The position numbers and the translations under genes were made by a program. A DNA stretch of 32,000 bases from Candidatus Saccharimonadota bacterium (GTDB lineage Bacteria; Patescibacteriota; Patescibacteriia; 2-12-FULL-60-25), in the NCBI GenBank assembly GCA_023898425.1, contig CP060222.1:930001-962000 (forward strand), written 5' to 3'. Under the pieces are notes generated by a model. The model made no database searches and was not told the DNA's origin. It saw nothing but the letters and a program-made list of their open reading frames with translations. Of this stretch, positions 2,666-30,037 are shown piece by piece (position 1 is the first letter of the stretch; each line of letters begins with the position of its first letter).

Positions 2666-3799
2666 ATGCATATAGCTTGTACCCAAGAAAACCTCTTACA
2701 AGGTTTATCACTCGTGAGTCATATCACGGCCAAACAAACAAACCTTCCTATCCTAGGAAATGTCTTATTAAAGACTGAGGGAGGTGGTTTAAAATTATTC
2801 TCTACAAATCTTGAGATGGCGATTAGCGCTCAAGTTCGTGGAGTTGTTGAAGCACAAGGAGAATTTACCGTCCCTGCAAAACTTCTACAGGATTATATTT
2901 CGCTCCTCCCTTCGGGTAAGGTGGAGCTTATTGTGAAGGATGATATTTTAGAGGTACGAGCCCATGGTTCATCAACGACGATGAGGGGGATGCCTAGCTC
3001 TGAGTTTCCACTTATCCCGAAACTCGCTTTAGATGCTGGCTACCAGATCAATGCCGAAGCGCTCAAACTCGCCATTTCGCAAACAGTCTTTGCTGTATCA
3101 GCTTCGGAGGCTCGCCCAGAGCTTGGTGGTGTCGCTTGTTTCTTTAATAGCGAGAACGAAGAAGAGAAAGTGGTTTTTGCTGCCACAGATTCTTATCGTT
3201 TGTCAGAGCGTATTTTTCATATCGAAGGTGGTAGTAAAGAAGCGAAGCACTGTATTGTCCCTTCTCGAGCAATGCAAGAAATGGGACGTATTATCTCTGC
3301 GTATAAAGACGATGTTGATATGCCTGAAACAATCGACTGGTCTATTACAGAAAGTCAGATGGTGATGACCTACGGTAAAGTTGAGCTTATCTCGAGGCTT
3401 ATCGAAGGGAGTTTTCCTCCCTACCGACAAATCATGCCTTCTGAAAGTAAAACAAAATGTATTGTTGCTAAGTCAGAGCTTCAAAAAGCGATTAAAGCTG
3501 CTTCATTATTTGCTCGCCAAGGGGTATTTGATATCCATGTAGAGATCGATGCAACCAAAGGTATGACAATTTCGTCCTCTGATACTGGGACAGGAGCTCA
3601 TAGCTCGACCCTGAAGGCCGATATAAGCGGAGAATCAGTAAACAAGGTAATACTCAACTACAAATACTTCTCAGATGGTCTGAGCGTCCTCACAGGCGAT
3701 CAAGTAGAATTTCAATGTATTGATGGAATGAATCCCGTTACACTCTCAAGTAAAGGCACCGAAGGATTTAGTTATATCATCATGCCTATTCGCTCATAA
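2666..3799 (+). CDS. dnaN: DNA polymerase III beta sliding clamp
   Basis: 377-aa ORF directly after dnaA. The length and sequence pattern fit the beta clamp (LLQGLSLVSHI ... PILGNVLL ... ATDSYRLSE ... EGSFPPYRQIMP). Confidence 0.95.
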   Translation: MHIACTQENLLQGLSLVSHITAKQTNLPILGNVLLKTEGGGLKLFSTNLEMAISAQVRGVVEAQGEFTVPAKLLQDYISLLPSGKVELIVKDDILEVRAHGSSTTMRGMPSSEFPLIPKLALDAGYQINAEALKLAISQTVFAVSASEARPELGGVACFFNSENEEEKVVFAATDSYRLSERIFHIEGGSKEAKHCIVPSRAMQEMGRIISAYKDDVDMPETIDWSITESQMVMTYGKVELISRLIEGSFPPYRQIMPSESKTKCIVAKSELQKAIKAASLFARQGVFDIHVEIDATKGMTISSSDTGTGAHSSTLKADISGESVNKVILNYKYFSDGLSVLTGDQVEFQCIDGMNPVTLSSKGTEGFSYIIMPIRS

Positions 3800-12163: not shown

Positions 12164-12496
12164 ATGGGTATGGAAACATATGCTCAACGACCGGTGATGA
12201 GAGACATGTCTCAACATAAGTCAGGTTCTTCTACAGGTGATCATCGAGAAAAAATAATGGCTCTCGATGGACCAAAGTATCCTGATATGAAGATAGGTAC
12301 ACCATATGATGAATTCGATGATCTTACAGATGCTAAATATGGTGAAGAAAGGCTTTTGAAGCCTGCTAAAACCCCAAAAGAAGAGAGAACCCGCGCGAAA
12401 TATATTCGTGACAACAAAGGGGTTATGAAAGAAATAAAAATAACTCCGTACAGAAGCCATCTCGACAAGCCTCAAAAACCAAGACAGTTAAACTAA
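12164..12496 (+). CDS. hypothetical small charged protein
   Basis: 110-aa ORF, lysine/glutamate/proline-rich, with no hydrophobic segment and no motif I recognise. It lies between a good promoter and the terminator at 12781-12819. Confidence 0.45.
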   Translation: MGMETYAQRPVMRDMSQHKSGSSTGDHREKIMALDGPKYPDMKIGTPYDEFDDLTDAKYGEERLLKPAKTPKEERTRAKYIRDNKGVMKEIKITPYRSHLDKPQKPRQLN

Positions 12497-12514
12497 TACT
12501 AAATACAAAAAGTT

Positions 12515-12649
12515 ATGCCACAAGGATCATTTCATGGCGCAGAATCACTTCACTTGCAGCCAGCTAAAAACATAGCAGGTACAACTGTGCCCGCAGATAA
12601 GGCTATTGAGGATTATCATAAACATCACGGAGATCCATCTAAGGCCTGA
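12515..12649 (+). CDS. very small hypothetical ORF (44 aa), possibly the 5' part of a frameshifted about 85-aa gene ending at 12773
   Basis: My translation is MPQGSFHGAESLHLQPAKNIAGTTVPADKAIEDYHKHHGDPSKA, ending at the stop. A second frame is open from 12576 to 12773 (…DTESDFDPRKLTMVGEGIGKGPNHTFYKVRNFKGKVFAKRF). Both pieces are below the ORF-track size cutoff. Confidence 0.2.
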   Translation: MPQGSFHGAESLHLQPAKNIAGTTVPADKAIEDYHKHHGDPSKA

Positions 12650-12780
12650 TACAGAAAGTGATTTTGACCCACGTAAGTTAACAATGGTGGGTGAGGGTAT
12701 CGGAAAAGGTCCAAACCATACCTTTTATAAGGTAAGAAATTTTAAAGGTAAGGTATTCGCTAAGCGATTCTAGTGGTAGA

Positions 12781-12819
12781 TAAAAAAACAACCGACATGC
12801 TTGTCCGGTTGTTTTTTTG
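12781..12819 (+). terminator. rho-independent terminator
   Basis: aaaaaaaacaaccgaca tgct tgtccggttgtttttttg: a GC-containing stem with one bulge and a T7 run. Confidence 0.6.
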
Positions 12820-13043
12820 TTTTACATGAAACTATCCACAGGTATTTTTGTGTTTCACAAGAAACAAATTCTTTGCAGGTATAAGCTGTGTATACCGAGC
12901 TAAATACAGTCTTAAGTACCATGCTATCTGTGGATATTCATATGATTACGATATACACATGTTGATATCTAGTATATTTTGATCAAGATTTACAATGAAA
13001 GAGGTATTCAGATGTTGGTAAGTACAGAAAAAGTGTATAAACA

Positions 13044-13069
13044 TGTGGATAATGTTTCATATGAAACAA
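13044..13069 (+). repeat. 26-bp direct repeat, copy 1 (DnaA box + 14-bp palindrome)
   Basis: tgtggataatgtttcatatgaaacaa is identical to 13116-13141. It contains TGTGGATAA immediately followed by the perfect palindrome gtttcatatgaaac. Confidence 0.9.
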
Positions 13070-13115
13070 TTTTCATCACTACCAACTGTTGATAAGCATG
13101 TGTACAAATTTAAGC

Positions 13116-13141
13116 TGTGGATAATGTTTCATATGAAACAA
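13116..13141 (+). repeat. 26-bp direct repeat, copy 2
   Basis: A perfect copy of 13044-13069, with starts 72 bp apart. Confidence 0.9.
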
Positions 13142-13590
13142 AAGTTTATATACAAACTTCACGTATTCAGAGCTGGGTTGGTTTTCATATCACATCTACA
13201 AGCGGGTCTTGTTTTCTTTATCAACCGAAATACTGGGTTGTAATCAATCTTATGGATATATGTGTTTGTATTCCCAATCTTTGTTTGTTTGAATATTCGT
13301 TTAAGTTGCTGGATATCAAAAAAAAATAGAACGACCAGACTCGAGTGTTGAGTCTGGCCGTGAGGTGATCATGAAGCGTTGGTAGAACCGATGCCTCAAT
13401 TGCGCTGAGCACGTTCCGTGAGTGGAGGTGCGGCTGTGAGTTCTAGAAGTGTATAACAAGGAGAATAATTGTCAACAAATATACAGTGTGTCTTTGCATA
13501 TAATATTGTACGACGCTAGTAAACTGTGCTAAATAGAGCGAAATTTTTATGAATGGTTAAAAATACTATATAATAGATATATCTTTAACT

Positions 13591-14505
13591 ATGCGTTTTT
13601 TGCATTATTCTCTGAGTGCTCTTGTGAGCGTACTCCTTACCGTCTCGCCAGTCATGGCGATGACGAGTACGAACTATCAAATCAATTGGGATGATATGGC
13701 TGCGGGAGGCGCAGATTTTGGATCCAGTGCCAATTATCTTGTGCATGATACTCTTGGTGATGTTGCTGCAGGCGCTGGTTCTAGTGTGAATTATCGATTA
13801 TCAGCCGGATATCGTATACCAGAAACAACAAATATCTTGGGTTATGAGGTAAAAGCACGATCCGCAAGTCCTTCGACGTCGTGGTCTTCGTTTAATGGAG
13901 TTGATCAGGTGACAGTTGCTTCAGCTGCTGGTTTTTCGATAGGGGATCTTATTGCGGTAATAGAAGATATCGGGCTATCACAACTTGTTGCTATCGGTAG
14001 AATCTCAAATATCGCAGGCACTTTAATAACAGTTGATCGATTTGACGGTGATTCAGGTATTATCTCAGTAGTTTCAGCTGGTGGAGATGATAGAGTTTAT
14101 CGTTTATCTGCAGCATCTCTCGCCTTGGGTTCGGTAACGGATTCTACAGCCGCGGTTGGTGTAGTTGGTACGAATGTGATTTCAAGTGTTCCTACGGGTT
14201 ATTCGCTTTATGTACACGGTAATCATTTAATGCAAAGTGGTGCTGAAACAATCGACGAAGTATTGGATGGGTCAGTCACCGTAGGTTCCGAAGAATTTGG
14301 CGCTAGTGTAACGGGTCCAGGGGCAATAAATGCGGGTACCGATCTTGGAGTCACAACAACATTACGTTTAGTGCAAACAAATGCCGTCGCTACAGGTGGT
14401 GAGGGTGATAAACTTGGTTTCTCGTATAAGCTTACCGTTGCACCAGGTACGGTAAACGGTAGTTATACTCAAGATACGTACTATACCTTGGTAGCAAATT
14501 ACTAG
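13591..14505 (+). CDS. secreted hypothetical protein (signal peptide; Gly/Ser/Thr-rich beta-type sequence)
   Basis: 304-aa ORF with an N-terminal signal-like segment (MRFLHYSLSALVSVLLTVSPVMA). The motif S-x-NY-x-(L/I/V) recurs (TSTNYQI, SSANYLV, SSVNYRL). There is no further hydrophobic anchor. It is the first gene of a tightly packed three-gene unit. Confidence 0.8.
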   Translation: MRFLHYSLSALVSVLLTVSPVMAMTSTNYQINWDDMAAGGADFGSSANYLVHDTLGDVAAGAGSSVNYRLSAGYRIPETTNILGYEVKARSASPSTSWSSFNGVDQVTVASAAGFSIGDLIAVIEDIGLSQLVAIGRISNIAGTLITVDRFDGDSGIISVVSAGGDDRVYRLSAASLALGSVTDSTAAVGVVGTNVISSVPTGYSLYVHGNHLMQSGAETIDEVLDGSVTVGSEEFGASVTGPGAINAGTDLGVTTTLRLVQTNAVATGGEGDKLGFSYKLTVAPGTVNGSYTQDTYYTLVANY

Positions 14506-14506
14506 T

Positions 14507-15412
14507 ATGTTTCACACGCGTTCATTATTTGCATTGATTGTATCGTTTAGCTTTTTATTGGTCATGCCTACAAAGTCTCATGCGCTTACCGTGGGCCCTG
14601 CGATTACAGATATTTCGCTTGATGCAGGGATGGTAACTACTACCAATATCGTTGTGGGTAATAATGACGCAATTTACAAAACATTTGATTTTTCTACGGA
14701 AACATTTGAAGCTGATGGTGATAAGGGTCAATCACGTTTTTTAGGAAAGACTGGCGCTGCCAACTGGTTTATTATGGATGCATCGGTAACCTTGCAGCCA
14801 GGTGAAAATAGAAAAGTACCCATCTCTCTACGTGTTCCTCAAGATGTCACGCCTGGGAGTTATCAAGTTGTTGTTTTTATAACAGAGCGTGGTTCTACCG
14901 AGTCTGGAGTAACAAATCTACAGAGAATCGGTGTCTTATTTTTTCTAATGGTACAAGGTGATACGAATGTTGTTTGGAGTGAGCCAGAGTTTCAGCAAGT
15001 ATTTTCTCAGGTTGTTAGCTTTGGAAATACTTTTCGTGTGGGATTAGAAAATAAGGGTAATACCTACGGTGTACCTTCGGGGACTATTGAGATTGCTTCG
15101 CTCTTTGGCACTTCAAAAAAAATTTCACTTAATCCTCAGCAGGTTCGCGTATTGCCAGGTAGTAAACGGTCGTATGTCGTTGGTTTTGGTGATACTCGTG
15201 CACCTAAAACGTTTGTCGAGCGTATAAAGCAAGAGTGGACGCATTTTGCTATTGGTCCCTATACCGCTAAAATGCAATTAGACGGCTATCCTGAGGTTCT
15301 TGAAACGTCATTTATTGTTTTGCCAACAGCGCTCATAAGTATTTTTACCGGTATCCTTCTATTGTTATTGGTTGTTATTACCTGGGCAAAATACGTGAGA
15401 CGTACTGTTTGA
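14507..15412 (+). CDS. secreted protein with a C-terminal transmembrane anchor; two beta-sandwich-like halves reminiscent of DUF916/DUF3324 cell-surface proteins
   Basis: 301-aa ORF starting 1 nt after the previous stop. It has a signal peptide (FALIVSFSFLLVMPTKSHA). Patterns include VTLQPGENRKVPISLRVPQDVTPGSYQVVVFI and VLPGSKRSYVV ... IGPYTAKMQL. The C-terminal TM segment is LISIFTGILLLLLVVITW followed by KYVRR. The family resemblance is from memory of sequence patterns, not a search. Confidence 0.75.
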   Translation: MFHTRSLFALIVSFSFLLVMPTKSHALTVGPAITDISLDAGMVTTTNIVVGNNDAIYKTFDFSTETFEADGDKGQSRFLGKTGAANWFIMDASVTLQPGENRKVPISLRVPQDVTPGSYQVVVFITERGSTESGVTNLQRIGVLFFLMVQGDTNVVWSEPEFQQVFSQVVSFGNTFRVGLENKGNTYGVPSGTIEIASLFGTSKKISLNPQQVRVLPGSKRSYVVGFGDTRAPKTFVERIKQEWTHFAIGPYTAKMQLDGYPEVLETSFIVLPTALISIFTGILLLLLVVITWAKYVRRTV

Positions 15413-15466
15413 TCAGGTATCAATCCATAAAGAGTTGTCTCAAGTCTTGATGGATGGTTACCCGAT

Positions 15467-18400
15467 ATGAAACATACTTTTTTTCGCTCATTACTGAGCT
15501 CTTTATTGTTACTTGTATTGTCTATTGGCAATGCGACTCCTGTTTTTGCTGCGCAACTCACAGGACGTAGTGATGTAATGACGCGCCAAGCGCCTGCGAT
15601 TGGCTCAGATCATGAGATTCGTTTTATCACGCCTACGGGTGTTGATGCCCCAACGGATACGATCACTTTGCAATTCGCAAGTGACTTTGATCTCACGGGT
15701 ATTACCGCGGCGGACATAGACCTACTTCATGGTCCTATTACCGGCCTTGAAATATCCGAAACGATTGCTGCTGCCGCGGCTGCTGGTGTTTGGGGTGCTG
15801 GCGTTAGTGGTCAAACCATTACTCTTACGGCGCCAACAAATGCAGCAATTGGAGAAATTACCGCAACTCATATCGTAACGATTCGAATCGGAAACAATGC
15901 TGGTGGTGCAAATCAGATCATCAACCCTGGCCCAGGAGCGGGTGGTGCTCCAAGAACCATGTGGATTGCCGGAACATTTGGCGATACAGGAATTATTGAA
16001 ATCCCATTTGCTCAACCTACAAATAATGATGCGATCGCTATAACAGCAACCGTTGGTGCTGTTATTGGCGGCGGTGGAGGCGGCGGTGGAGGGTGTGTTG
16101 GTATTGCCTGCGGTGATACTCAAGGGCCGATTATTTCGAATATTCGCGTTGTAAATATTACGTCGTCAACAGCAATGGTATTGTGGGATACAGACGAGCC
16201 AGCAACGACAGCGTTTTATTATGGATTAACCACAGGTTATACGGGAGGATTTATTGGTGATGGTACGCTAGTAACATCGCATAGTGTTTCGTTAACAAAT
16301 CTTACGCCTGAAACGCTTTATCATTTTCGTATTAATGGTACGGATGGGCTAGGTAATACTTCAGTAACCTTAGATAATACTTTTACAACGCTTGCGCTAG
16401 ATACACCTGTAGAAGCGCTTATTATAAGTAATGTACGCTCAATTCTTATTACGGATAGCACGGCTGCTATTACGTGGAATACAAATATCGCTGCAGATAG
16501 TAAAGTAGATTATGGAATTTCTGATGCCTACGGTTTTGTGGTTGTACGCGGGACACTTGATACCGTTCATCAATTGGATTTGAGTGGTCTCACTCCTAAT
16601 ACGACCTATCATTTTCGAGTCACATCAGAGACGGGGTTATCTAACGCTGTAACGGGAGATTTTATTTTTCAAACACTTGCCGATACAAACCCACCAGCGA
16701 ACCCACAAAATTTTGTTGCTGTAGGAGATTTTCTCCAAAATACCCTTCAATGGGTTAATCCTAATGTAGGCGATTTTTCTCATGTAAGAATTCTTGCGAG
16801 AACAGATAGATATCCGAATAATCCAAATGATGGCGTTTTAGTCTATCAAGGTAATAATCAAAATGCGATTCATAATGGTTTGGTTGCAGGGCAAGTCTAT
16901 TACTATGCGAACTTTGCCTATGATTTGAGTGGTAATCGTTCGTCAGGCGCTTTAGCTCAAGCGACACCGTTTGGTTTAACTGAAACGCCAACCAGTACGC
17001 CGCCTTTACCAACAAATCCTCCAGTCACTGATCCAGGTACTAGTCCTGGAGGTGAGAATCCTACAACAGGCGCCGTAACATCAACGCCAGAAGTACCTAC
17101 CGTTACTACCACCGAACCAGGAACGGATATTACAGATCCAGAAAAGCCAGAAATAACTGAGCCTCCAGTACAACCACCGATTCAGCCACCAGTACGCGAT
17201 ATTGTTATTACGCCAGTATATACTCTTGGTAATGGCTCAGTTGTTTTGGTGCCAAATACCAAGAACGAGATCAATACAGTGCCTGGTCCTGCGATTACGG
17301 TAGTTGTTCGATCAGAAGAGGTGCCAGGTAATCCGGAGACAGCAACGATTCTCGTGGGTAATGATCGATATCTATTAACAAAGCTACCAAACGGTGATTG
17401 GACGGCGAGCTTTGTTCCTGATCGTTCGGGTCAAATGCCTGCGCAAATTACGTTTGGTTATGATGATGGTTCTATCGCTCAAGCAACCACAACGATCATT
17501 ACTGGCGTGCCTGGGCAAGTTATTGAGCGTGATATCCCATTTATCGGGCCTGCGCGCATGGTCGAAGGTGTTCGTATAACCGTTTATCAAAAAGTAGATG
17601 GTGAGTGGATGCAATGGTCGGGTGCTATTACAGGACAAGAACATCCATTCAAGACAAAAGCTGATGGTCTTTGGGGTTTTGTTGTACAAAATGGAGAGTA
17701 TCGCGTTCTTTTTGAAAAAGAAGGATATGATACTGAGGAGAAGATCGTTACCGTTACCAATAACCTGCTTGGTTATCAGGTAGAGATAAACAAACCATTA
17801 CCGGTAGATGTGAATATTATCGGAATCATTACTACAGCTGTTGCGATAGCAAATATCGCGACAGTAGCAAGTCTTTTAAACTATCTTTGGTATCTCTTAA
17901 CGCAGCCATTTCTCATTTTCGGTGCACGTAAGCGAAAAAAGTGGGGTGTCGTCTATAATTCTATTACGAAACAAGGTATTGATTTGGTTGCCGTTCGACT
18001 TGTGCATGCAAAAACAGGTCTAACCTTACAAACGAGAGTAACGGATGAAAAAGGAAGATACTTTTTTCATGTAAAACCTGGTCAATATAAGGTTGTTGCG
18101 GTAAAGGCGGGGTACGTATTTCCGAGTGTCATAGTTAAAGATGTTAAAGAAGACGATGAGTATCTTGATGTTTATCATTCCGAAGAGGTTGCTGTTGAAG
18201 CAGAAGCAGACCTCACGATGAATATCCCAATGGATCCAAACAATAAAGAGGAAACACCGGCCAAAGTTCTCTTTAAGAGTTTCTTGCGTAAGATGCAAGG
18301 ATTTGTCGGTGCCTTATCACTGATTATTACCGGTATAGCCCTCATCCTTGAGCCTGGTTGGATATTGTTAGGGTTATTTTTGTTCCAGCTCGCAACGTAT

Positions 18401-18712
18401 CTCTTGTTTAAAAAGCTTATTGCAAGTCGTAAGCCAAAAAATTGGGGTATTGTCTCTGATGTTGATAATAAGCATCCATTAGAGCGTGTAGTGATGCGTA
18501 TCTATGACAAAAAATACAATAAGTTATTAGAAACACAGGTTACAGATGGCCGTGGGCGTTATGGATTCTTAGCTACGAAGAATACCTACTTTATAACGGC
18601 TGATAAGCCTGGCTATGATCGCTTTACTTCTGATGATATCGATCTTACAAAAGCAAAAGAGCTTGCTGTAGAGAAACCTGTTAAGCTAAAAAAGAAAAAT
18701 ATCCAACAGTAA
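15467..18712 (+). CDS. large multidomain envelope protein: signal peptide, two FN3-like repeats, Pro/Thr linker, carboxypeptidase-regulatory-like domains interleaved with TM segments
   Basis: 1081-aa ORF with a signal peptide (LLLLVLSIGNATPVFA). It contains a Gly8 run. There are two repeats of the type ISN(I/V)R...ITxSTAxxxWxTxxxAxxxxxYG...LTPxTxYHFR. The PT-rich linker lies around aa 505-575. Three units of the type TDxxGRYxF...G.Y...A.K.GY resemble CarboxypepD_reg. Hydrophobic segments lie around aa 790-830 and 955-1000. Confidence 0.85.
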   Translation: MKHTFFRSLLSSLLLLVLSIGNATPVFAAQLTGRSDVMTRQAPAIGSDHEIRFITPTGVDAPTDTITLQFASDFDLTGITAADIDLLHGPITGLEISETIAAAAAAGVWGAGVSGQTITLTAPTNAAIGEITATHIVTIRIGNNAGGANQIINPGPGAGGAPRTMWIAGTFGDTGIIEIPFAQPTNNDAIAITATVGAVIGGGGGGGGGCVGIACGDTQGPIISNIRVVNITSSTAMVLWDTDEPATTAFYYGLTTGYTGGFIGDGTLVTSHSVSLTNLTPETLYHFRINGTDGLGNTSVTLDNTFTTLALDTPVEALIISNVRSILITDSTAAITWNTNIAADSKVDYGISDAYGFVVVRGTLDTVHQLDLSGLTPNTTYHFRVTSETGLSNAVTGDFIFQTLADTNPPANPQNFVAVGDFLQNTLQWVNPNVGDFSHVRILARTDRYPNNPNDGVLVYQGNNQNAIHNGLVAGQVYYYANFAYDLSGNRSSGALAQATPFGLTETPTSTPPLPTNPPVTDPGTSPGGENPTTGAVTSTPEVPTVTTTEPGTDITDPEKPEITEPPVQPPIQPPVRDIVITPVYTLGNGSVVLVPNTKNEINTVPGPAITVVVRSEEVPGNPETATILVGNDRYLLTKLPNGDWTASFVPDRSGQMPAQITFGYDDGSIAQATTTIITGVPGQVIERDIPFIGPARMVEGVRITVYQKVDGEWMQWSGAITGQEHPFKTKADGLWGFVVQNGEYRVLFEKEGYDTEEKIVTVTNNLLGYQVEINKPLPVDVNIIGIITTAVAIANIATVASLLNYLWYLLTQPFLIFGARKRKKWGVVYNSITKQGIDLVAVRLVHAKTGLTLQTRVTDEKGRYFFHVKPGQYKVVAVKAGYVFPSVIVKDVKEDDEYLDVYHSEEVAVEAEADLTMNIPMDPNNKEETPAKVLFKSFLRKMQGFVGALSLIITGIALILEPGWILLGLFLFQLATYLLFKKLIASRKPKNWGIVSDVDNKHPLERVVMRIYDKKYNKLLETQVTDGRGRYGFLATKNTYFITADKPGYDRFTSDDIDLTKAKELAVEKPVKLKKKNIQQ

Positions 18713-18790
18713 TAACAAAGGAGTGAACAAAAAGTTTTCCACTCGACATCACAGAATATCCACAATTTGTACACAATTATACGTTTTTAA

Positions 18791-18818
18791 AAAATCCGCT
18801 TATCATAGCGGATTTTTG
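18791..18818 (+). terminator. rho-independent terminator separating the 3-gene operon from the giant gene
   Basis: aaaatccgct tatcat agcggatttttg. Confidence 0.6.
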
Positions 18819-18868: not shown

Positions 18869-21800
18869 ATGCACAAGTTAGCAACGTACTTTTTAGAGGG
18901 AGTAAAATCCGTACTCATCGGTTCTATTGTTTTTATCGTTGCGTCAATAATTTTAGCGCCACCCTCTCACGCCGCCCCCGGCGTCCGTGCTAATGTCACC
19001 TACCAAGCTCGTCTCATGGATGCCTCAGGCTATCCAGTGGTAGATGGTGTCTATCAAATAGAGTTTAGTCTCTATGATGCAGCTGTAGCAGGCAATCGTC
19101 TTTGGTCAGCTAGTGGTACTACAGCTGTCCCTTTGCCTGTTAATGTCACCGTTCAAGATGGTCTCTTTACCGTTCTTCTTGGTGATGGTGTTACTCAACT
19201 CCCATTTACTGATATTGATTGGAACTCAGACAGCCTCTATCTCGGTGTAACTATTGGAGCCGATGGAGAAATGAGTCCTCGTAGACCTATTACAGCCGTC
19301 CCTCAAGCCATTAACTCCGCTCAACTTGGCGGAATGAGTCCTTCTAGTACCGATACCTACGGTGGAGAATCACAATTCACCATCACTCAAGCCTCAACAA
19401 CGGCAGCCACTTCAACCAGAAGTGCTTTAGATGTGAGATCCTATGGCGCAAGTGCAGCAAATGACTTTGCTTTTAGAGCTCTCACCAATGCAGGTACGCC
19501 AGCATTTACTATTACCTCTCAAGGCGTTGTATCAAGCACGAATCTTATCGTTGCTGGTCAGAATGTTTGTTTAGCCGATGGGACGGATTGTTTGCCAGGG
19601 GGTATTGAGTCTGACACCCTTCTCTCCGTTACTAACCGAGGCTCTGTTGCTACAGCAACCCTCACCCTTCTTGGAGGAGCTATTTCTAATACCGTAAACG
19701 TTACAGATACAGCAACGATCGCAAATGCTGTTGTTACGAGTACTCTCACGGTTTCTGGGACAATCTCATCAAATCTTCTTCCAACCACTGACCTTACCTA
19801 TTCTCTTGGTACACCATCTCTACGTTGGAATGGCAGTTTCGGCAATGTGACCATCCTTAATGGCACAACGACCAATGCCACCTCAACGAATTTCTTTGCT
19901 GCGAATGCAGCCTTAGGTTCTTTGATCGCAAACTCCGGCAATATCACAAGTCTTCTTGGTACCAACGCGACCTTTACGAGTGTTACATCAACCAACTTCT
20001 TCGCTTCTCTCGTATCTTCAACGCAAATTATCGTGAATGGCTTTGATGTTTGTACGAGTGATGGCGTGAACTGTCCTGCCGGTACTGGATCATTGCAGGA
20101 TGCTTATGATGGAGGAAGGGCGATTTCATTAAACGATGGTCATATTGAGTTAACTTCGGTTACAGGCACATCAGCCGATGTATTTGCTGACAATCTTGGA
20201 GCTACATTTACGAGAATGATTGGTGGTGGTGTTGCAGGTGTTACAACCACGGGTTTTGATATTCTTGGTTATGATGATGGTTTTGAACGAGGAGTAGTTC
20301 TTTCATTTAGTTTGGATCGTGATGGAATATCAGCGCTTTCGGGCGAAAGCTATTTAAATAGCACCAGCACGGCTAATATTCGCTTTAACGCTGGAGAATT
20401 TTCACAATACTTAGAGCTCAGTAATAATACTTCTTCTTTGTATTTGGCTAACGACTATATTGATTTAGCTATTAATAACGGTTCTGATGCTAAAGCGAAT
20501 ATGTTTGTAGGACCAGACGGAGTTTTCTACTTTTCTGCACAGGGGTCAAATGGTTTTTTTGATCAAACAGGATATGAATTTTATAATGATGTATCTGCCG
20601 CGTCAGTAATGCAGATCATATCTCAAAATGGCGGTAATGGCATTTGGGTTGGTAGTGACAATGATCCTAATACACAAAGTTATTTCCCTGGAGCTATAAG
20701 TGATTTACTTTTTAGACCAAATACAACAGGCGGTCCTGGTACACAACTCTATGTAAATACTGACGGTACTGATACCGGTTGGACGGGTATTGCTACGGTA
20801 GACATGTTAAGCGGTGGGTTGACTGCTACAACACTTTCGCGCGTAGGAACATCTACAAGTCCTCTTGGGGTTGCTTATACAATGGACGTACAAGGTTCAC
20901 TTCTCTTTTCAGTACACAATACCTATTTTGCGAATACGCATGATTGGAAGCTTTGGGATGTGTCCAATAAAGATGTTCCTGTTCAAGTATATGCGACTGG
21001 AAGTAGCGCATTAAACTATGTAAATTCTGGTAAATTAGCAGGTGATCGTTTGTATACGGTAGACACAACTTCTACAAAACTTTCAGTATTTGATATCTCT
21101 AATCCTTCGTTGCCAATTTTACTTGGATCGATGACAGGTACATCAACGCCTCTTTCACTTGAAAAAAAACTCGTTATTGAAGGTTCAAATGTCTACATGG
21201 CATCTGAAATTGGTTTAACGATTATTAATGCTAAAAATCCTGCGGCGATGTCAGTAACGAGTTTTACGAGTGTAGTGACTCCAGGCGGTGGTATTACGCC
21301 TGTACGCATGGATGCGCAGGATGGTTATGTATATCTTTCGACTAAGTTTGGTGTTTCGCAACCAACGTCAACCATTACGATTATCGACGCGCGTAACATC
21401 AATTCACCCTCCGTTGTAGATAGCTTTGAAGTTCCTGCAGCAACTTTTCGTGGGGATGATATAGCGGTTTCTAATGAAAAACTCTATATCTATATCTCTT
21501 CAGGAGGTAGCGAGTATATTCGCCGCTACTCTATTGCAGACCGTGAAAACCCAGTGTTAGAGACAACGTTCCCTGTAAACAATGGCACGGGTGAATTCTT
21601 TGTGAATAAAGGGTTGGTTATTACACGAGACGCTTCATCTATCATGTTATACAACGAAGATGGGCTTCTCATCGATTCGTCTTCAAGCTCGCATTCGGGA
21701 GCAATTACATACGAAGGTGGCCAAATTTATGCTAGTAACTTTGAAGGACCGACGATTAAGCTTGCTGTTTATGATATTGGAGGCGTTAATGTAAATGCCT

Positions 21801-24800
21801 TAAATGTTGCAAATGCGAGCATTGGTTCTGCTACGGTAGCGAATAATTTAACGGTTAACGGCAGATCCAGCTTTGTGAATGGTATTACGGTGCAGGGTCG
21901 TGGTGTTTGTTTGTCGGATGGTACTAACTGTCCTGCCTCTGGTTCAGGCTCCCTTCAGTCTGCATACGATCTTGGCCGAACTGTTACAACAACAAATGGT
22001 GGCATAACACTTCTTTCGCCTACCGTTGGCGGAACGAACCTATATCCAACGGCAGACTTAGATCTAAAAGAAATTATTGGCGGTGGATTTGAGTATGATC
22101 CAAATCAAGGCTTTGGGATTGCTCAATACAGCTCAACAACAGCTGCGGTTTCTAGTGGTACGATGATGTATTTTTCAACAGATCGTAGTAATCCTTTTGG
22201 TCCTTCTGCTACATCAACCTTTATTATATCCGACCTTGAGATTGGAGCGATGTATCTTGGTAATCCGCTAACAGATAACGTACTTTCATTGTATAACGAT
22301 TCTTCAAGTCTAGTATTTGATAACTTTATTACACTTGATGCGCCAACGTTAAACTTCATCGGTGATCTAGATTTACAAGGCACCGTTACAAGTGATATTA
22401 GTCCATTCTCAAGTCTTTCATTTGATCTTGGTATTTCTACTGCTAGATGGAGATTTGGTTATTTTGGAACGGTAAGCAGCACGGCGGTGCAAGCTGGTTC
22501 GGTTACTGTGGGCGGTCAAAGTGTTTGTTTAGCAAATGGTACAAATTGTTTAGCGAATGGGTCACTTCAAAGCGCTTATAATATTGGTAAATCAATTACT
22601 TTAAACAGCGGTCATATCGAATTAACCTCAGTAACGGGCACAAGCTCAGATTTTCTTACGGAGGATTTTGGTGCTACAGCTACTCGAATGATTGGTGGTG
22701 GTATTGCCGGCGTTACGACCACCGGTTTTGATATCATAGGTTATGATACGGGGAACGGTAGAGGCGTAGAGCTCACATTTAGCTCAGATCGTGATGGTGT
22801 GAATGCGCCAGCTGGTCAAAGCTATCTGTACGGTGCAAGCACGGCAAGAATCTCTTATTTAACAGATAAGTTTGATAACCCATCGTTACTTCTCAGCACA
22901 AACACATCTACGATTACGGTTGGTAATGACTATCTTTATTTCTCAGTAGTGGATAATGGCACTAGCGCTGCAAACATGAGCATGGATATCGATGGCCTTT
23001 TCTCGCTCGAAACACAGGTAGGAGGTGGTGTGGATGATGTGGCACCAATTAGGTTCAGTAACGGTGTCGATATTGGAGCGATGATTGAGCTACGCTCTCA
23101 ATTAACAAACGCCTCAATATGGCTTATTGATGATCAAGATCCAAATACGCTTGGTTACACGCCTTCCGCTATTAGTGACTTAATGTTCCGTTCAAATTCT
23201 ACGGCGGGTCCAGGCTCCCAACTTTATGTAAATACTGATGGTACAGATACAGGTTGGACGGGTATTGCTACGGTAGATATGTTAAGCAGCCTCACGCTAC
23301 AGGATGTTTACAATGCAGGCACATCTATTAGTACAGGCTTTGGTCCGGTGGTGCTAAACGCTTCAACCACAGGCCCTGATTTATTCCCTGCTTTTCCATG
23401 GTTAGATTCGTATCGCACTCTTGTTTCTAAAGGTTTTGATGATGACGGTATCGCCTTTAATCATGGCTCTGGTACATGGGACAATCAACATTATATCGAG
23501 TTCTTTAATGATGTATCTTTGCCGCCAATCACTTCTGTTTCTAGCTCATATATTATGGGTGATACTATGGCAGGAACACTTGATTTGGTTGGAGGAAGAG
23601 GTGTTAATATAGGGCTAGGAAATGCAACAACGACATTCAATACAAATGTCATCGTTGCCCCAGGAAAAGGTGTTGCGAGTAACTTCTCACCGTTTTTAAG
23701 CGATACCTATTCAATAGGAGATGCAAGCAAACGATGGGACCGAGGTTTCTTTAATGCGGTAAGTTCAACGCTCCTCGATTTAGTTAGCGGTTCAATTGCT
23801 ATTGGTAATTATGGCGCGTCATCTACGCCTGTACTCTCAGCTTCTCACAACCAAGGTGGTATTGATGGCTTCGATGTCCTTATGCTTAATGATATTGGAG
23901 TGACAGGTACGGCGCTCTTTACAACCGCTGATCGAAGTAAGGGGTTACCATTCCAGAATAACGGTCTAACTAAGACAACTTCTACTGCATTATACAGTTA
24001 TTATACAGATGTTTCTTCAACGTTGATTTTGCTAAACAAGGCAAATGACAATGCATCAATGATTAACATGACGGATAGCAATATTGATATTTCTGCTGCC
24101 GTAGGCACTTCTACAGATGGTCTTATAACTATGAGAGGAGAGTCTATTGGTCCTGCTGTCCGTGTTTCAAACAATAGCTCTTCGTTAGATCAAAGTTGGG
24201 ATCTATTTGCTCGTCGTTTATTAGTGGGTGAAGCTGTAAGCGCGACGGGTACGGCTGATTATAATATGGTGATCAGTTATACAAATGCAGGGCTTTGTTT
24301 GGACGATGTAACCAACGGAGCAACCTGTCCAACATCTGTTGCAGGATCAATCTTTGCAGACGGTACCATCACTTCAGATGCGTTCGATCTTGCCGAAATG
24401 TACAATGTCTCCGGTACGGCCTCAGCTGGTGATCTCGTCAAAATCACAAAAACAGCTACGGCTACCGTAGAAATCACAAATGGTATCGAGTATGACAATG
24501 ACACCATTGGTGTTATCTCCACAAAACCAGGTTTCTTGCTTGGTTGGGAAGGTGACGTTCAAGTAGCTCTTGCTGGTCGAGTCCCTACAAAAGTTTCTGT
24601 AGGAAACGGTACGATTGTAGCGGGTGATCGACTCACTACCTCACCAATCCCAGGAGTAGCCATGAAAGCAACGCGTCCTGGTCAAATCATTGGTATTGCT
24701 CTTGAAGATGCTAATGTTAGCGGAGTAATCGAAGTCTTTATTCAGCCAGGCTTTGATATGAGCTCAGCCTTTGCTGCCGATGGCTCAATGACGCTAGTAA

Positions 24801-25786
24801 ATGAATATGGCTCTACAACATTTTCCGTAAGTGCCGAAGGTGATGCATTCTTCTTAGGCGGTGTTAGTGCAACAAGCTTTACGACACATGCGGCATTTGA
24901 TCTCGCGGAACAATACGTTTCGGCAGATACGCTAGAGCCGGGTGACATTGTTGTTGCAAGTCCAAGCGGTAATCTCATGATTCAGCGTTCTGCTGATGCA
25001 AATACCTTGCCTATGGGTATTATCTCAACAGCTCCAGGGTTTACACTTGGCGCTAAGTCAGAAGGATCATATCCTGTAGCTCTTGCTGGCCGTGTTCCTA
25101 CCAAGGTCTCTACAATTAATGGTTCTATTAAGGCTGGAGACTTGCTCGCACCAACGGATATTCCTGGCGTTGCAGGTAAAGCGGTAGAAGATGGCCCTGT
25201 AGTGGGCATTGCTCTTGAGAGTTATGAAGGTGCTGATACAGGAATGATTGAAGTCTTTGTAAAATCCGTTTGGTATTCGAAGCCTAATCAAACACCAGCG
25301 CAGATTATCGAAAATAACACCTATGTAACAAACATTTCTGAATCTTCGCCAAGTGTTGTTCGTCGCGGCCTCGCCTCTATTGAGTCTGGTGCCGTTAAAG
25401 TCCATGTCTCGTTTGAAACGTTGCTTGGCTACCCATTTGTACAGGTAACACCGCGCGGTCTCATTGTGGGATCATGGTCTACGGATAATTATAGCGATAC
25501 AGGATTTGATATCATCTTAGAGCAACCGCAAACATTTGATGTGATCTTTGGTTGGGAGGCAAGTGCGCTTAGTGGCTCAACCATGATGATGATGTCTGAT
25601 GGAACGAGCTTGCTTGTTGATCCAACGACTGGTCAGGTTATTGTGCAGGAGCCTGAAGAAGAGGTGGTTGATGATACTGAAATTATCACCGATCCTGATG
25701 TAGACGCTCCACAGGTAGATGTAGTAAGTGATCCAACAGTAGTATCTGAAGAAGTTCCTGTGCCAGAGTCTGCTCCTGAAGAGTAA
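18869..25786 (+). CDS. giant (2305 aa) tail-fibre-like surface protein with an N-terminal signal/anchor, LVIVD-like beta-propeller region and tandem C-terminal modules
   Basis: One uninterrupted 6.9-kb ORF. The N-terminal hydrophobic segment is followed by SHA-AP. A fibre-like N-module is present (VTYQARLMDASGYPVVDG...YLGVTIG...RRPITAVPQAINSAQLGG). The motif VC(L/T)xDG(T/V)xC recurs four times, and (D/S)(L/I)Gxx(S/T)x(R/K)RW recurs three times. The stretch aa ~655-1010 looks like LVIVD repeats (LSVFDISNPSLPILLGSM, TITIIDARNINSPSVVDSF). Two ~125-aa modules are of the type FDLAExY...ALAGRVPTKVS...IEVF. The tail is acidic. Confidence 0.9.
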   Translation: MHKLATYFLEGVKSVLIGSIVFIVASIILAPPSHAAPGVRANVTYQARLMDASGYPVVDGVYQIEFSLYDAAVAGNRLWSASGTTAVPLPVNVTVQDGLFTVLLGDGVTQLPFTDIDWNSDSLYLGVTIGADGEMSPRRPITAVPQAINSAQLGGMSPSSTDTYGGESQFTITQASTTAATSTRSALDVRSYGASAANDFAFRALTNAGTPAFTITSQGVVSSTNLIVAGQNVCLADGTDCLPGGIESDTLLSVTNRGSVATATLTLLGGAISNTVNVTDTATIANAVVTSTLTVSGTISSNLLPTTDLTYSLGTPSLRWNGSFGNVTILNGTTTNATSTNFFAANAALGSLIANSGNITSLLGTNATFTSVTSTNFFASLVSSTQIIVNGFDVCTSDGVNCPAGTGSLQDAYDGGRAISLNDGHIELTSVTGTSADVFADNLGATFTRMIGGGVAGVTTTGFDILGYDDGFERGVVLSFSLDRDGISALSGESYLNSTSTANIRFNAGEFSQYLELSNNTSSLYLANDYIDLAINNGSDAKANMFVGPDGVFYFSAQGSNGFFDQTGYEFYNDVSAASVMQIISQNGGNGIWVGSDNDPNTQSYFPGAISDLLFRPNTTGGPGTQLYVNTDGTDTGWTGIATVDMLSGGLTATTLSRVGTSTSPLGVAYTMDVQGSLLFSVHNTYFANTHDWKLWDVSNKDVPVQVYATGSSALNYVNSGKLAGDRLYTVDTTSTKLSVFDISNPSLPILLGSMTGTSTPLSLEKKLVIEGSNVYMASEIGLTIINAKNPAAMSVTSFTSVVTPGGGITPVRMDAQDGYVYLSTKFGVSQPTSTITIIDARNINSPSVVDSFEVPAATFRGDDIAVSNEKLYIYISSGGSEYIRRYSIADRENPVLETTFPVNNGTGEFFVNKGLVITRDASSIMLYNEDGLLIDSSSSSHSGAITYEGGQIYASNFEGPTIKLAVYDIGGVNVNALNVANASIGSATVANNLTVNGRSSFVNGITVQGRGVCLSDGTNCPASGSGSLQSAYDLGRTVTTTNGGITLLSPTVGGTNLYPTADLDLKEIIGGGFEYDPNQGFGIAQYSSTTAAVSSGTMMYFSTDRSNPFGPSATSTFIISDLEIGAMYLGNPLTDNVLSLYNDSSSLVFDNFITLDAPTLNFIGDLDLQGTVTSDISPFSSLSFDLGISTARWRFGYFGTVSSTAVQAGSVTVGGQSVCLANGTNCLANGSLQSAYNIGKSITLNSGHIELTSVTGTSSDFLTEDFGATATRMIGGGIAGVTTTGFDIIGYDTGNGRGVELTFSSDRDGVNAPAGQSYLYGASTARISYLTDKFDNPSLLLSTNTSTITVGNDYLYFSVVDNGTSAANMSMDIDGLFSLETQVGGGVDDVAPIRFSNGVDIGAMIELRSQLTNASIWLIDDQDPNTLGYTPSAISDLMFRSNSTAGPGSQLYVNTDGTDTGWTGIATVDMLSSLTLQDVYNAGTSISTGFGPVVLNASTTGPDLFPAFPWLDSYRTLVSKGFDDDGIAFNHGSGTWDNQHYIEFFNDVSLPPITSVSSSYIMGDTMAGTLDLVGGRGVNIGLGNATTTFNTNVIVAPGKGVASNFSPFLSDTYSIGDASKRWDRGFFNAVSSTLLDLVSGSIAIGNYGASSTPVLSASHNQGGIDGFDVLMLNDIGVTGTALFTTADRSKGLPFQNNGLTKTTSTALYSYYTDVSSTLILLNKANDNASMINMTDSNIDISAAVGTSTDGLITMRGESIGPAVRVSNNSSSLDQSWDLFARRLLVGEAVSATGTADYNMVISYTNAGLCLDDVTNGATCPTSVAGSIFADGTITSDAFDLAEMYNVSGTASAGDLVKITKTATATVEITNGIEYDNDTIGVISTKPGFLLGWEGDVQVALAGRVPTKVSVGNGTIVAGDRLTTSPIPGVAMKATRPGQIIGIALEDANVSGVIEVFIQPGFDMSSAFAADGSMTLVNEYGSTTFSVSAEGDAFFLGGVSATSFTTHAAFDLAEQYVSADTLEPGDIVVASPSGNLMIQRSADANTLPMGIISTAPGFTLGAKSEGSYPVALAGRVPTKVSTINGSIKAGDLLAPTDIPGVAGKAVEDGPVVGIALESYEGADTGMIEVFVKSVWYSKPNQTPAQIIENNTYVTNISESSPSVVRRGLASIESGAVKVHVSFETLLGYPFVQVTPRGLIVGSWSTDNYSDTGFDIILEQPQTFDVIFGWEASALSGSTMMMMSDGTSLLVDPTTGQVIVQEPEEEVVDDTEIITDPDVDAPQVDVVSDPTVVSEEVPVPESAPEE
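18966..19955 (+). repeat. paralogous block 1 shared with 26206-27194 (about 0.99 kb, direct orientation)
   Basis: The base-by-base offset is 7239, changing by 1 at single-base indels. Flanking tracts are identical. A diverged patch (about 19190-19400 / 26430-26640) carries mostly synonymous changes. Confidence 0.9.
22511..24900 (+). repeat. paralogous block 2 shared with 27457-29845 (about 2.4 kb, direct orientation)
   Basis: The offset is 4946, then 4945 after a 1-bp deletion in the downstream copy. Long near-identical tracts are interrupted by a diverged patch (23645-23815 / 28590-28760). Divergence rises after about 24565 / 29510. Confidence 0.9.
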
Positions 25787-25856: not shown

Positions 25857-26110
25857 TTGTTTAGCGAAATATTATAACTTGGCTCATCGATTAGTTAATC
25901 AAAGCTATAATAAAGATAACCATTTGCAGAGTCCTGAATCTCGTTGGGGAATGAGATTCTTGTGATGAGAAGTGGTCAGTATGAAAGATATTTTGTGGGG
26001 TCTGATGTCACTGAAATAATCAGTAACATAAGATAAATGGTCTACTCATAAAATAGAAAATTCCTACCAATATATTATTGGCGGTATTGTTTTTGATATT
26101 GACTACAGCG

Positions 26111-27088
26111 ATGGAGAGTAATCTCTATGAATATTTTGCAAAACGCAAAGCGCACGCTCTTTTTGCCGCAATACTATTTTGCGGTCTCCTTTTTTTCGAC
26201 CTCTGCTCACGCCGCCCCGGCGTCCGTGCTAATGTCACCTACCAAGCTCGTCTCATGGATGCCTCAGGCTATCCAGTGGTAGATGGTGTCTATCAAATAG
26301 AGTTTAGTCTCTATGATGCAGCTGTAGCAGGCAATCGTCTTTGGTCAGCTAGTGGTACTACAGCTGTCCCTTTGCCTGTTAATGTCACCGTTCAAGATGG
26401 TCTCTTTACCGTTCTTCTTGGTGATGGTGTTACTCAACTCCCATTTACCAATATTGATTGGAACTCAGACAGCCTCTATCTCGGTGTAACTATTGGAGCC
26501 GATGGAGAAATGAGTCCACGAAGACCCATTACAGCCGTTCCTCAAGCCATTAATTCTGCTCAACTTGGCGGAATGAGTCCATCTAGTACTGACACCTATG
26601 GTGGAGAATCACAATTCACCATCACTCAAGCTTCAACCACCGCAGCCACTTCAACCAGAAGTGCTTTAGATGTGAGATCCTATGGCGCAAGTGCAGCAAA
26701 TGACTTTGCTTTTAGAGCTCTCACCAATGCAGGTACGCCAGCATTTACTATTACCTCTCAAGGCGTTGTATCAAGCACGAATCTTATCGTTGCTGGTCAG
26801 AATGTTTGTTTAGCCGATGGGACGGATTGTTTGCCAGGGGGTATTGAGTCTGACACCCTTCTCTCCGTTACTAACCGAGGCTCTGTTGCTACAGCAACCC
26901 TCACCCTTCTTGGAGGAGCTATTTCTAATACCGTAAACGTTACAGATACAGCAACGATCGCAAATGCTGTTGTTACGAGTACTCTCACGGTTTCTGGGAC
27001 AATCCATCAAATCTTCTTCCAACCACTGACCTTACCTATTCTCTTGGTACACCATCTCTACGTTGGAATGGCAGTTTCGGCAATGTGA
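26111..27088 (+). pseudogene. fragment 1 of the disrupted tandem paralog of the giant fibre gene (own N-terminal leader + fibre N-module)
   Basis: The track ORF is 26078-27088 and the likely ATG is 26111 (MESNLYEYFAKRKAHALFAAILFCGLLFF). It matches the giant protein from PGVRANVTYQ to TLTVSGTI. A 1-bp deletion relative to 19766 (aatctcatc versus aatccatc at 27004/27005) then shifts the frame, and a stop follows at 27086-27088. Confidence 0.8.
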
Positions 27089-28029
27089 CCATCCTTAATG
27101 GCACAACGACCAATGCCACCTCAACGAATTTCTTTGCTGCGAATGCAGCCTTAGGTTCTTTGATCGCAAACTCCGGCAATATCACAAGTCTTCTTGCAAC
27201 AAATGCGACATTCACAAGCGTTACTTCAACGAATGGCTTCTTCTCAAGCCTTGTTGGCTCCACCTTTGCTGCTGGTTCAGCAACGGTTGGTACTTCAACC
27301 ATCGGTTTCGTGAATGTGACAGGCTCTCTTTTTGCTCCAAGTGGAACGATAACAGATCTTAATGGCTCTGGTCTCGTCTTCTCGAATGCAACCTTTACCA
27401 ATGCGACCGCAACAACCCTCTTTGCTTCTCTTGTTTCTTCCTCTCAAATATTCGTTGGTGGTCAGAGCGTCTGTTTAGCAAATGGTACAAATTGTTTAGC
27501 GGATGGGTCACTTCAAAGCGCTTATAATGCTGGTAAATCCATCACGTTAAACAGCGGTCATATCGAATTAACCTCAGTAACGGGCACAAGCTCAGATTTT
27601 CTTACGGAGGATTTTGGTGCTACAGCTACTCGAATGATTGGTGGTGGTATTGCCGGCGTTACGACCACCGGTTTTGATATCATAGGTTATGATACGGGGA
27701 ACGGTAGAGGCGTAGAGCTCACATTTAGCTCAGATCGTGATGGTGTGAATGCGCCAGCTGGTCAAAGCTATCTGTACGGTGCAAGCACGGCAAGAATCTC
27801 TTATTTAACAGATAAGTTTGATAACCCATCGTTACTTCTCAGCACAAACACATCTACGATTACGGTTGGTAATGACTATCTTTATTTCTCAGTAGTGGAT
27901 AATGGCACTAGCGCTGCAAACATGAGCATGGATATCGATGGCCTTTTCTCGCTCGAAACACAGGTAGGAGGTGGTGTGGATGATGTGGCACCAATTAGGT
28001 TCAGTAACGGTGTCGATATTGAGCGATGA
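27085..28029 (+). pseudogene. fragment 2 of the disrupted paralog
   Basis: The homologous frame is already open from about 27007 (SSNLLPTTDLTYSLG...). This fragment contains a 260-bp segment unique to this copy (27196-27456). It then rejoins the giant gene at its VGGQSVCLANGTNC module. It ends after a 1-bp deletion (tattggagcg versus tattgagcg at 28020/28021). Confidence 0.8.
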
Positions 28030-30029: not shown

Positions 30030-30037
30030 CGGGCCGC

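Follow-up and report, generated by a model that had tools for sequence, protein, structure and literature searches.

This report concerns a three-gene operon of an ultrasmall, Magasanikbacteria-like bacterium of the candidate phyla radiation (CPR), contained in a window of 32,000 nt (the whole stretch of DNA analyzed; contig CP060222.1 of assembly GCA_023898425.1, positions 930,001 to 962,000 of the forward strand). Its genes are three + strand open reading frames (ORFs), labeled P1, P2, and P3, for exported and membrane-bound proteins, and they are followed by a gene for a 2305-aa protein, referred to as the giant protein. The main elements of the locus, which we relate below to the Pam pilus of other CPR bacteria, are as follows:

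12780..12820, + strand: intrinsic terminator ending the upstream unit (-19 kcal/mol, z -7.3, then a U-run)
13591..14505, + strand: P1, 304 aa, a secreted, PamT-like pilus subunit
14507..15412, + strand: P2, 301 aa, a membrane-anchored, two-domain chaperone-like protein with a WxLIP/PapD fold
15467..18712, + strand: P3, 1081 aa, an envelope-spanning stalk/anchor protein
18790..18817, + strand: intrinsic terminator 3' of P3 (-14.4 kcal/mol, z -6.1, then a U-run)
18869..25786, + strand: giant tail-fiber-like protein, 2305 aa, secreted, with an LVIVD/beta-propeller region

An earlier note on this DNA had described three tightly packed genes with gaps of 1 and 54 nt and a terminator after the third, and the ORFs and the hairpin with its U-run agree with that description: P1 and P2 are separated by 1 nt and P2 and P3 by 54 nt, and all three genes are co-oriented. 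Hydropathy places N-terminal signal sequences on P1, P2, P3, and the giant protein. The public records USN52383-USN52386 are exact matches to P1-P3 and the giant protein, and all four are named "hypothetical protein." P1 is 293 aa long in USN52383.1 and MCA9390634.1, versus 304 aa when read, as here, from an upstream ATG; the 11 additional residues (13591-13623, MRFLHYSLSAL) belong to the longer start, and the shorter one would cut the n-region of the signal peptide.

The earlier note had suggested that the assembly might be uncharacterized, a label that no longer applies: P1 falls in the superfamily of CPR Pam pilus subunits, and the Pam system was described by cryo-electron microscopy (cryo-EM) in 2026. 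In Candidatus Mycosynbacter amalyticus, two Pam filaments were solved by this method (Troman et al., bioRxiv 10.64898/2026.03.03.709456). According to the same preprint, PamA, PamB, and PamE consist of an N-terminal domain, a linker (the donor strand), and a C-terminal domain; PamC and PamD are FimC/PapD-like chaperones with a C-terminal transmembrane (TM) helix; and PamR is an anchor made of FnIII and TM parts. Two NCBIfam models of the June 2026 release, CPR_pilus_PamT (NF058579) and CPR_Pam_pilin_C (NF058581), derive from this work, and both find P1, whose regions are these:

13660..13824, + strand: N-segment of P1 (aa 24-78), starting at the predicted cleavage site between VMA and MTSTNY
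13825..14085, + strand: inserted beta domain of P1 (~aa 79-165, ~87 aa)
14086..14502, + strand: C-terminal pilin domain of P1, Pam_pilin_C-like (aa 166-304), ending G290-x-Y292...N-Y304

The PamT model matches aa 8-81 of P1 over model positions 9-84 (E 5e-9, 35.9 bits; curated NCBIfam cut-off, 240 bits), and the Pam_pilin_C model matches aa 174-304 over positions 3-148 of its 148 (E 0.003, 17.7 bits; curated cut-off, 55 bits). Across the P1 family, PamT is matched by all 48 members (best E 6.4e-16) and Pam_pilin_C by 37 of the 48 (best E 8.5e-12), whereas Pfam returns no match for P1. The superfamily is large: at E<=1e-3, an exhaustive search with the P1-family profile (A1) recovered 3134 clusters, of which 849 remain at E<=1e-10. 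Among the 150 clusters listed, most of the distant ones are short forms of 210-260 aa that align at ~1-90 and ~172-305 only, and 39 of the 42 short forms tested match PamT, below threshold. Because the short forms match only the N- and C-terminal parts and carry the PamT similarity, P1 is best described as a PamT-like core with a domain inserted at ~aa 79-165.

The N-segment, with its invariant and near-invariant columns, is the best conserved part of the superfamily, and it holds three S-x-N-Y-x-hydrophobic strand motifs, the first of which lies at the predicted signal cleavage site. In the AlphaFold2 (AF2) model of P1 (predicted local distance difference test [pLDDT], 81.6), two beta domains are confident, with strands at aa 83-148 exceeding a pLDDT of 90, but the monomer falls below 50 over aa 19-77 despite the strong conservation there. 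A conserved segment of low modeled confidence is the pattern to be expected if it folds only against a partner, which makes the N-segment a candidate inter-subunit or chaperone interface. At the other end of the protein, G290 and Y292 are near-invariant among 66 superfamily members. The C terminus of P1, with a Gly placed 14 residues before the end and an aromatic last residue, resembles the conserved C-terminal motif of chaperone-usher pilins, a likeness that we treat as a lead only.

Structural comparisons of P1 with Foldseek gave weak matches to the two-domain tip adhesin CfaE, to CfaB (probability, 0.96-0.97), and to FimG, FimA, and the PapG pilin domains. One sub-structure of the P1 model, ~98 residues long, is similar to part of the phage tailspikes/depolymerases LKA1 gp49 and K64-1 (probability, 0.99-1.0); apart from this sub-domain, the viral fold library yielded only weak matches to P1, and no PHROG matched it. 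Searches of the PDB with the single sequences of P1 and P2 stayed at chance level, and the P1 family profile had no match there, so that the structures of PamA and PamB cannot serve as direct references.

P2 combines a chaperone-like fold with a membrane tether. Its AF2 model (pLDDT, 81.8) comprises a signal peptide, two immunoglobulin (Ig)-like domains (aa 27-150 and 157-271), and a helix (aa 274-300), which corresponds to the following feature:

15326..15400, + strand: C-terminal TM anchor of P2 (aa 274-298, hydropathy peak 2.66), followed by the basic tail KYVRRTV

This anchor is conserved in the family alignment. Against the PDB, the top Foldseek matches of P2 are the WxLIP structures of Enterococcus faecium, 9i1y and 9i25 (the latter in complex with a WxL protein), at an E of 2e-10, followed by CfaA, CsuC, EcpB, Caf1M, FimC, SafB, CupB2, and PapD at E values of 1e-9 to 1e-6. 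The relationship extends to the sequence level: a 14-member P2 family profile matches the EfmWxLIP1 sequence across the DUF916 domain (E 5e-8), and PF06030 (DUF916) is found, sub-threshold, in 10 of 14 P2 relatives. In P2 itself, Pfam detects no PF06030 and only weak Ig-like matches, and no NCBIfam model matches it. In fold and family profile, P2 shows homology to WxLIP, and it is the only member of the trio for which the analogy with WxL systems amounts to homology. The first Ig-like domain contains a low-confidence loop (aa 128-139) and is closed by a hydrophobic strand (aa 140-149); in the model, aa 128-149 would occupy the position expected for the F1-G1 loop and G1 donor strand of a chaperone.

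P3 is a large, multidomain protein with several membrane segments:

15554..16063, + strand: conserved N-terminal ecto-domain of P3 (aa 30-199), followed by a Gly9 run
16118..16966, + strand: three FN3-type domains of P3 (aa ~218-500; Pfam fn3, Pur_ac_phosph_N)
16967..17800, + strand: Pro/Thr-rich spacer of P3 (aa 501-578) and two beta domains (aa 579-778, PEGA/transthyretin-like)
17810..18676, + strand: membrane module of P3 (TM region, aa 782-820; CarboxypepD_reg-like domain, 827-900; TM hairpin, 945-985; second CarboxypepD_reg-like domain, 995-1070)

A hidden Markov model (HMM) of the N-terminal domain matches only P3 homologs and not the N-terminal domains of the second pilins described below. 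Pfam assigns CarboxypepD_reg to three stretches (E 2.5e-16) and PEGA weakly, NCBIfam adds a weak transthyretin-type match, the PHROG tail matches are weak, and by hydropathy the hydrophobic blocks fall at ~aa 782-820 and 945-985. Conservation is low in the spacer and highest in the membrane module (0.6-0.73). Both CarboxypepD_reg-like domains are flanked by Lys/Arg clusters, and the positive-inside rule therefore suggests that they face the cytoplasm; such a location is unusual for the CarboxypepD_reg/transthyretin-like fold and hints at a role beyond anchoring. For all three proteins, the features listed in the earlier note are borne out: a signal peptide and S-x-NY motif in P1 (an N-terminal hydrophobic signal sequence and three such motifs), two beta-sandwiches with a C-terminal TM segment in P2 (the AF2 model), and FN3-like and CarboxypepD_reg-like domains with embedded TM segments in P3, on which Pfam and hydropathy agree.

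The three genes stay together across a wide range of relatives. From contig records and from GTDB species genomes scanned with a 14-sequence P1 alignment, we obtained 33 CPR species loci, all of them in Uhrbacteria or "Patescibacteria group" metagenome-assembled genomes (MAGs), ten of which are labeled "uncultured Gammaproteobacteria" (taken to be mislabels). P1 identity over these loci ranges from 70% down to 32%. Wherever a locus extends past P1, a P2 homolog follows directly or after one gene; where the flank suffices, a P3 homolog and often a giant homolog come after P2, and many loci adjoin PBP1-polA-holA. The order P1-P2-P3 that the earlier note had asked about is thus kept, wherever the flank suffices, in the 33 loci and in further contigs.

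In thirteen sister loci (including L019, L021, L027-L030, and L032-L037), P1 and P2 are separated by an additional gene of 217-372 aa. Its product has an N-terminal domain of its own, and its C-terminal 130-160 aa match the C-terminal domain of P1 (E 1e-12 to 1e-20); all eight extra genes scanned match Pam_pilin_C over nearly the full model length. Judged by sequence, the extra gene looks like a PamA/B-like, putative shaft pilin.

More distantly, a Kaiserbacteria-like locus (L007 3001-12330, with L006 as a further case) contains a pam-type module directly after the ATP synthase genes. It encodes, in order, a 1644-aa tail-fiber-like protein (LVIVD and Peptidase_S74), a 235-aa secreted protein ending in ...GTYTATGTLTAYLNP, a 376-aa P2 homolog with a C-terminal TM segment (BLASTP E 3e-9, family HMM 4e-48), a short PamT-like protein (P0062, 255 aa) that is a distant relative of P1, and a 521-aa FN3 protein with a single C-terminal TM segment, to which the FN3 region of P3 is 35% identical (E 6e-24). 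The module, composed of a PamT-like subunit, a tethered chaperone, an FN3 anchor, and a tail-fiber-like neighbor, thus recurs across CPR classes. None of the 816 relatives of P0062 bears a Pam name, and among the 120 listed the only informative name is Candidatus Kaiserbacteria.

From these data, we read the trio as a divergent, shaft-less, minimal chaperone/strand-complementation surface assembly of the Pam superfamily, built in a single-membrane bacterium from incomplete Ig-like subunits without an usher, and put the probability of this reading at roughly 65%. The data establish the homologies and folds, the membrane anchors, and the conserved order of the genes; strand complementation, the coupling of P1 to P3, and a part in host attachment are inferred. 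Under this reading, P1, P2, and P3 would be exported via Sec, and P2 would remain on the outside of the cytoplasmic membrane, anchored there by its C-terminal helix, and act in the manner of PapD/FimC or WxLIP: with its strand at aa 140-149, it would fill in the open C-terminal pilin domain of P1, so that this subunit stays competent for assembly. P1 would be a tip-type subunit, with the ~87-aa inserted domain as a possible binding or docking module. Because no PamA/B-type shaft pilin is encoded at the locus, P1 would most likely pass onto the P3 stalk by strand exchange and not be polymerized into a long filament. The stalk would comprise the N-domain, the three FN3 domains, the Pro/Thr spacer, the two beta domains, and a polytopic membrane base, and the product would be a short stalked adhesin, acting alongside the giant tail-fiber-like protein in contact with a host cell; the trio is probably used for holding on to that cell.

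Several observations weigh against this interpretation. The scores of P1 are far under the curated cut-offs of both Pam models (35.9 versus 240 bits and 17.7 versus 55 bits), every other Pam-model match for which a score is listed is likewise below the cut-off, and the ties of P1-P3 to Pam run through NCBIfam models and published descriptions. PamT itself is, by AlphaFold inference in the preprint, a single-domain tip subunit without a donor strand (bioRxiv 10.64898/2026.03.03.709456). P1 has no cysteines, in which PamA and PamB differ, and the A1 profile finds P1 only, and no second pilin, among the ORFs of the window; with no PamA/B/E-type shaft pilin there, it is possible that no filament is made. 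At ~4 times the expected size, P3 greatly exceeds PamR, and it is best conserved in its apparently cytoplasmic module, which would not be expected of a passive anchor. A terminator lies between the trio and the giant gene, and no ATP synthase genes occur in the window.

The lack of a shaft pilin in the window also suits a different arrangement, a static surface complex of the WxL/Csc type in which P2 would be a non-covalent platform that holds P1 permanently at the membrane or wall, with no strand exchange or polymer, and P3 would be an independent wall-spanning protein. Since the nearest solved relative of P2, in structure and in sequence, is WxLIP, such a platform is plausible; WxLIP has been proposed to bind and stabilize a partner at the surface (PMC10599100), and the single operon of P1, P2, and P3 resembles the arrangement of Csc/WxL clusters. 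We nonetheless consider it unlikely. P1 as a WxL protein was rejected, as none of the 66 P1-superfamily proteins matches Pfam WxL; the models that P1 does match are those of the Pam pilins; there is no LPXTG protein among the four; the Pfam DUF916 matches are sub-threshold; and the PamA/B-like pilin added in sister loci points to a polymerizing system within the family.

The giant protein invites another reading, in which the trio would be its mounting apparatus, with P1 as the adaptor, P2 as the chaperone, P3 as the membrane base, and the giant protein as the fiber proper. The giant or tail-fiber-like gene is a conserved neighbor both here and in the Kaiserbacteria-like locus, a tail-fiber-like protein is reported as central in pam neighborhoods (bioRxiv 10.64898/2026.03.03.709456), and the ~98-residue sub-structure of P1 is similar to phage tailspikes. 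Yet the giant protein has its own signal/anchor sequence and its own transcription unit, several related loci show no giant homolog within the flank examined, and the Foldseek tailspike match leaves the aligned parts of P1 and of the tailspike unspecified; we consider this arrangement quite improbable. That the three genes are unrelated neighbors by chance, or the remnant of a degraded prophage tail-fiber region, is hardly credible: the weak PHROG tail matches of P3 and the giant protein speak for it, but the gene order persists over 33 species down to 32% identity in P1, the neighborhood beside PBP1-polA-holA is chromosomal and has no phage genes, and P1 has no PHROG match. On synteny and chromosomal context, we reject both phage origin and chance adjacency.

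Attachment to a host is the presumed way of life of CPR bacteria, and few of the organelles that serve it are known. It was only in 2026 that the Pam pilus was identified, in one Saccharimonadia species (bioRxiv 10.64898/2026.03.03.709456). The present locus suggests that Magasanikbacteria and Uhrbacteria have a shaft-less version of it that has diverged strongly but can still be recognized, and the PamT-like superfamily to which it belongs is very large (~3100 clusters at 50% identity). In addition, the homology between Pam-type chaperones and WxLIP, not discussed in the Pam preprint, which mentions neither WxL nor DUF916 (bioRxiv 10.64898/2026.03.03.709456), would bring two separate surface systems of single-membrane bacteria into a common frame, that of strand complementation by a membrane-anchored chaperone. 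A bolder and rather doubtful proposal is that the trio represents the minimal core of a widespread single-membrane surface assembly, ancestral to both CPR Pam and the Firmicute WxL/WxLIP (Csc) systems, with P2 as the sequence-level bridge. Such an assembly would be shaft-less in Magasanikbacteria and many Uhrbacteria, P1 would be strand-exchanged onto the P3 stalk, and P3, through its conserved cytoplasmic domains, would relay surface contact to the inside of the cell.

The giant protein, which has a signal/anchor sequence of its own, is matched weakly by Pfam LVIVD and NCBIfam choice_anch_B and, in its C-terminal part, by PHROG tail-fiber families; homologs lie downstream of P3 in many loci. 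The link between trio and giant fiber proposed in the earlier note finds support in their conserved co-location, and a tail-fiber-like gene has been reported beside pam operons, but the strong terminator between them means that co-transcription is not implied. The protein contains four C-x6-C pairs (aa 234/241, 395/402, 1014/1021, and 1220/1227) in similar contexts, such as CL(A/S)DGT(D/N)C, and, toward its C terminus, a motif like "AFDLAE.Y ... ALAGRVPTKVS" that occurs twice and is the source of its weak PHROG tail-fiber matches. A second, degraded copy of its gene occupies 26078-30670, with the frame broken into four ORFs: 26206-27243 aligns with 18966-20002 at 97% identity, and 27454-30073 with 22508-25129 at 94%. 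This copy lacks ~2.5 kb that span the LVIVD/propeller region, and at least one of its fragments is a separate gene in the NCBI annotation; it could be a pseudogene, a recombination cassette for fiber variation, or the result of assembly frameshifts.

Upstream of the operon, ~770 nt of intergenic DNA separate the terminator of the preceding unit from P1. The earlier note had taken these for a regulatory region; its extent is as described. DnaA boxes form a cluster in it, and repeats and a promoter/terminator pair on the minus strand are present as well. The cluster is the following:

12832..13141, no strand: five clustered DnaA-box-like 9-mers, a candidate operator region for the operon

Within it, two perfect direct repeats of 26 nt (13044-13069 and 13116-13141) each consist of a TGTGGATAA box followed by the palindrome TGTTTCATATGAAACA, and 13012-13068 shows 84% conservation in L008, the closest relative. 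A further DnaA-box-like 9-mer lies at 18756-18764. The window contains 31 DnaA boxes versus 9 expected, and over 39 loci their density is 1.52/kb in the 1 kb upstream of P1 versus 0.29/kb elsewhere (~5-fold), with many loci having none. These boxes may reflect the action of DnaA or another regulator on the operon, or they may be part of a near-origin box cluster. Another DnaA-box cluster, between dnaA and dnaN (2313-2582), coincides with the minimum of the cumulative GC skew and is the probable oriC, ~11 kb from the operon.

On the minus strand of the intergenic region, a sigma-70-like promoter (13475..13448) and a strong terminator hairpin (13361..13331) bracket an RNA of ~120 nt. The candidate RNA (13322-13445) has a predicted folding energy of -39.9 kcal/mol (z -4.45). 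Because Rfam offers no match to it and L008 does not conserve it, we do not count it as part of the system. Between tRNA-Arg and the intergenic region (12164-12773), a 110-aa ORF (12164-12496) and short ORFs extend up to the terminator at 12780-12820, and one related contig has a 90-aa gene at a similar position. The window (GC content, ~42%) begins with dnaA (883-2286) and dnaN (2666-3799), followed by a class A penicillin-binding protein, polA, a holA-like gene, rpsT, and tRNA-Arg; its remaining genes are housekeeping genes.

The closest known systems include Pam, with which the trio shares several features. Both appear to be CPR-restricted, have Sec-exported components, and use no usher; both include a subunit with a Pam_pilin_C-type C-terminal domain and a PamT-type N terminus, an anchored chaperone (P2 with its two Ig-like domains and C-terminal TM segment, matched to PamC and PamD by description), and an FN3 membrane-anchored protein in the operon (P3, a putative counterpart of PamR), and both adjoin a tail-fiber-like gene. 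In pam neighborhoods, that tail-fiber-like protein is central and ATP synthase genes are near (bioRxiv 10.64898/2026.03.03.709456), whereas the trio lies near oriC/polA, with no ATP synthase genes in the 32-kb window. The trio further differs in that its locus has a single subunit gene, with an insert of ~87 aa, and encodes no PamA/B/E shaft pilin, in having one chaperone in place of two, and in a P1 without cysteines. Its P3, with 1081 aa, three FN3 domains, about three TM segments, and two CarboxypepD_reg-like domains, stands in contrast with the small, RbmA-like PamR, and its lineage is Magasanikbacteria/Uhrbacteria rather than Saccharimonadia/Microgenomatia.

The WxL/Csc systems of Lactobacillales and Bacillales, in which WxLIP combines DUF916, DUF3324, and a TM segment, resemble the trio in the architecture, fold, and detectable sequence homology of P2 and in operon logic: a small secreted protein, an anchored protein with two Ig domains, and a large surface protein. 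In addition, a hairpin strand of WxLIP is predicted to complete the beta-sandwich of its WxL partner (PMC10599100), which is the same logic as that of donor-strand complementation. The likeness to WxL clusters proposed in the earlier note accordingly survives for P2 (Foldseek E 2e-10, profile E 5e-8) and fails for P1 (0 of 66 with WxL). The trio differs in residing in a CPR bacterium and not a Firmicute, and its partner subunit belongs to the Pam pilin superfamily. The lack of WxL and LPXTG motifs noted earlier agrees with our checks: neither motif occurs in P1 or P2, Pfam finds no WxL domain in P1, P3, or the giant protein, and none of the four proteins has an LPXTG-like motif with a C-terminal anchor.

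Chaperone-usher pili (Pap/Fim, CFA/I, Csu, and Caf1) share the PapD-like fold of P2, and their CfaB, FimG, and PapG pilin domains are weakly similar to the C-terminal domain of P1. They differ in that the trio operates without an outer membrane and with a membrane-tethered chaperone, at identities of 9-14%; P1 has an additional N-segment and an inserted domain, and no usher is matched by Pfam or NCBIfam in P1-P3 or the giant protein. The kind of system is known from one preprint and the June 2026 NCBIfam release, and the trio departs from it in subunit architecture, its missing shaft pilin, its single chaperone, its very different anchor, genomic context, and lineage.

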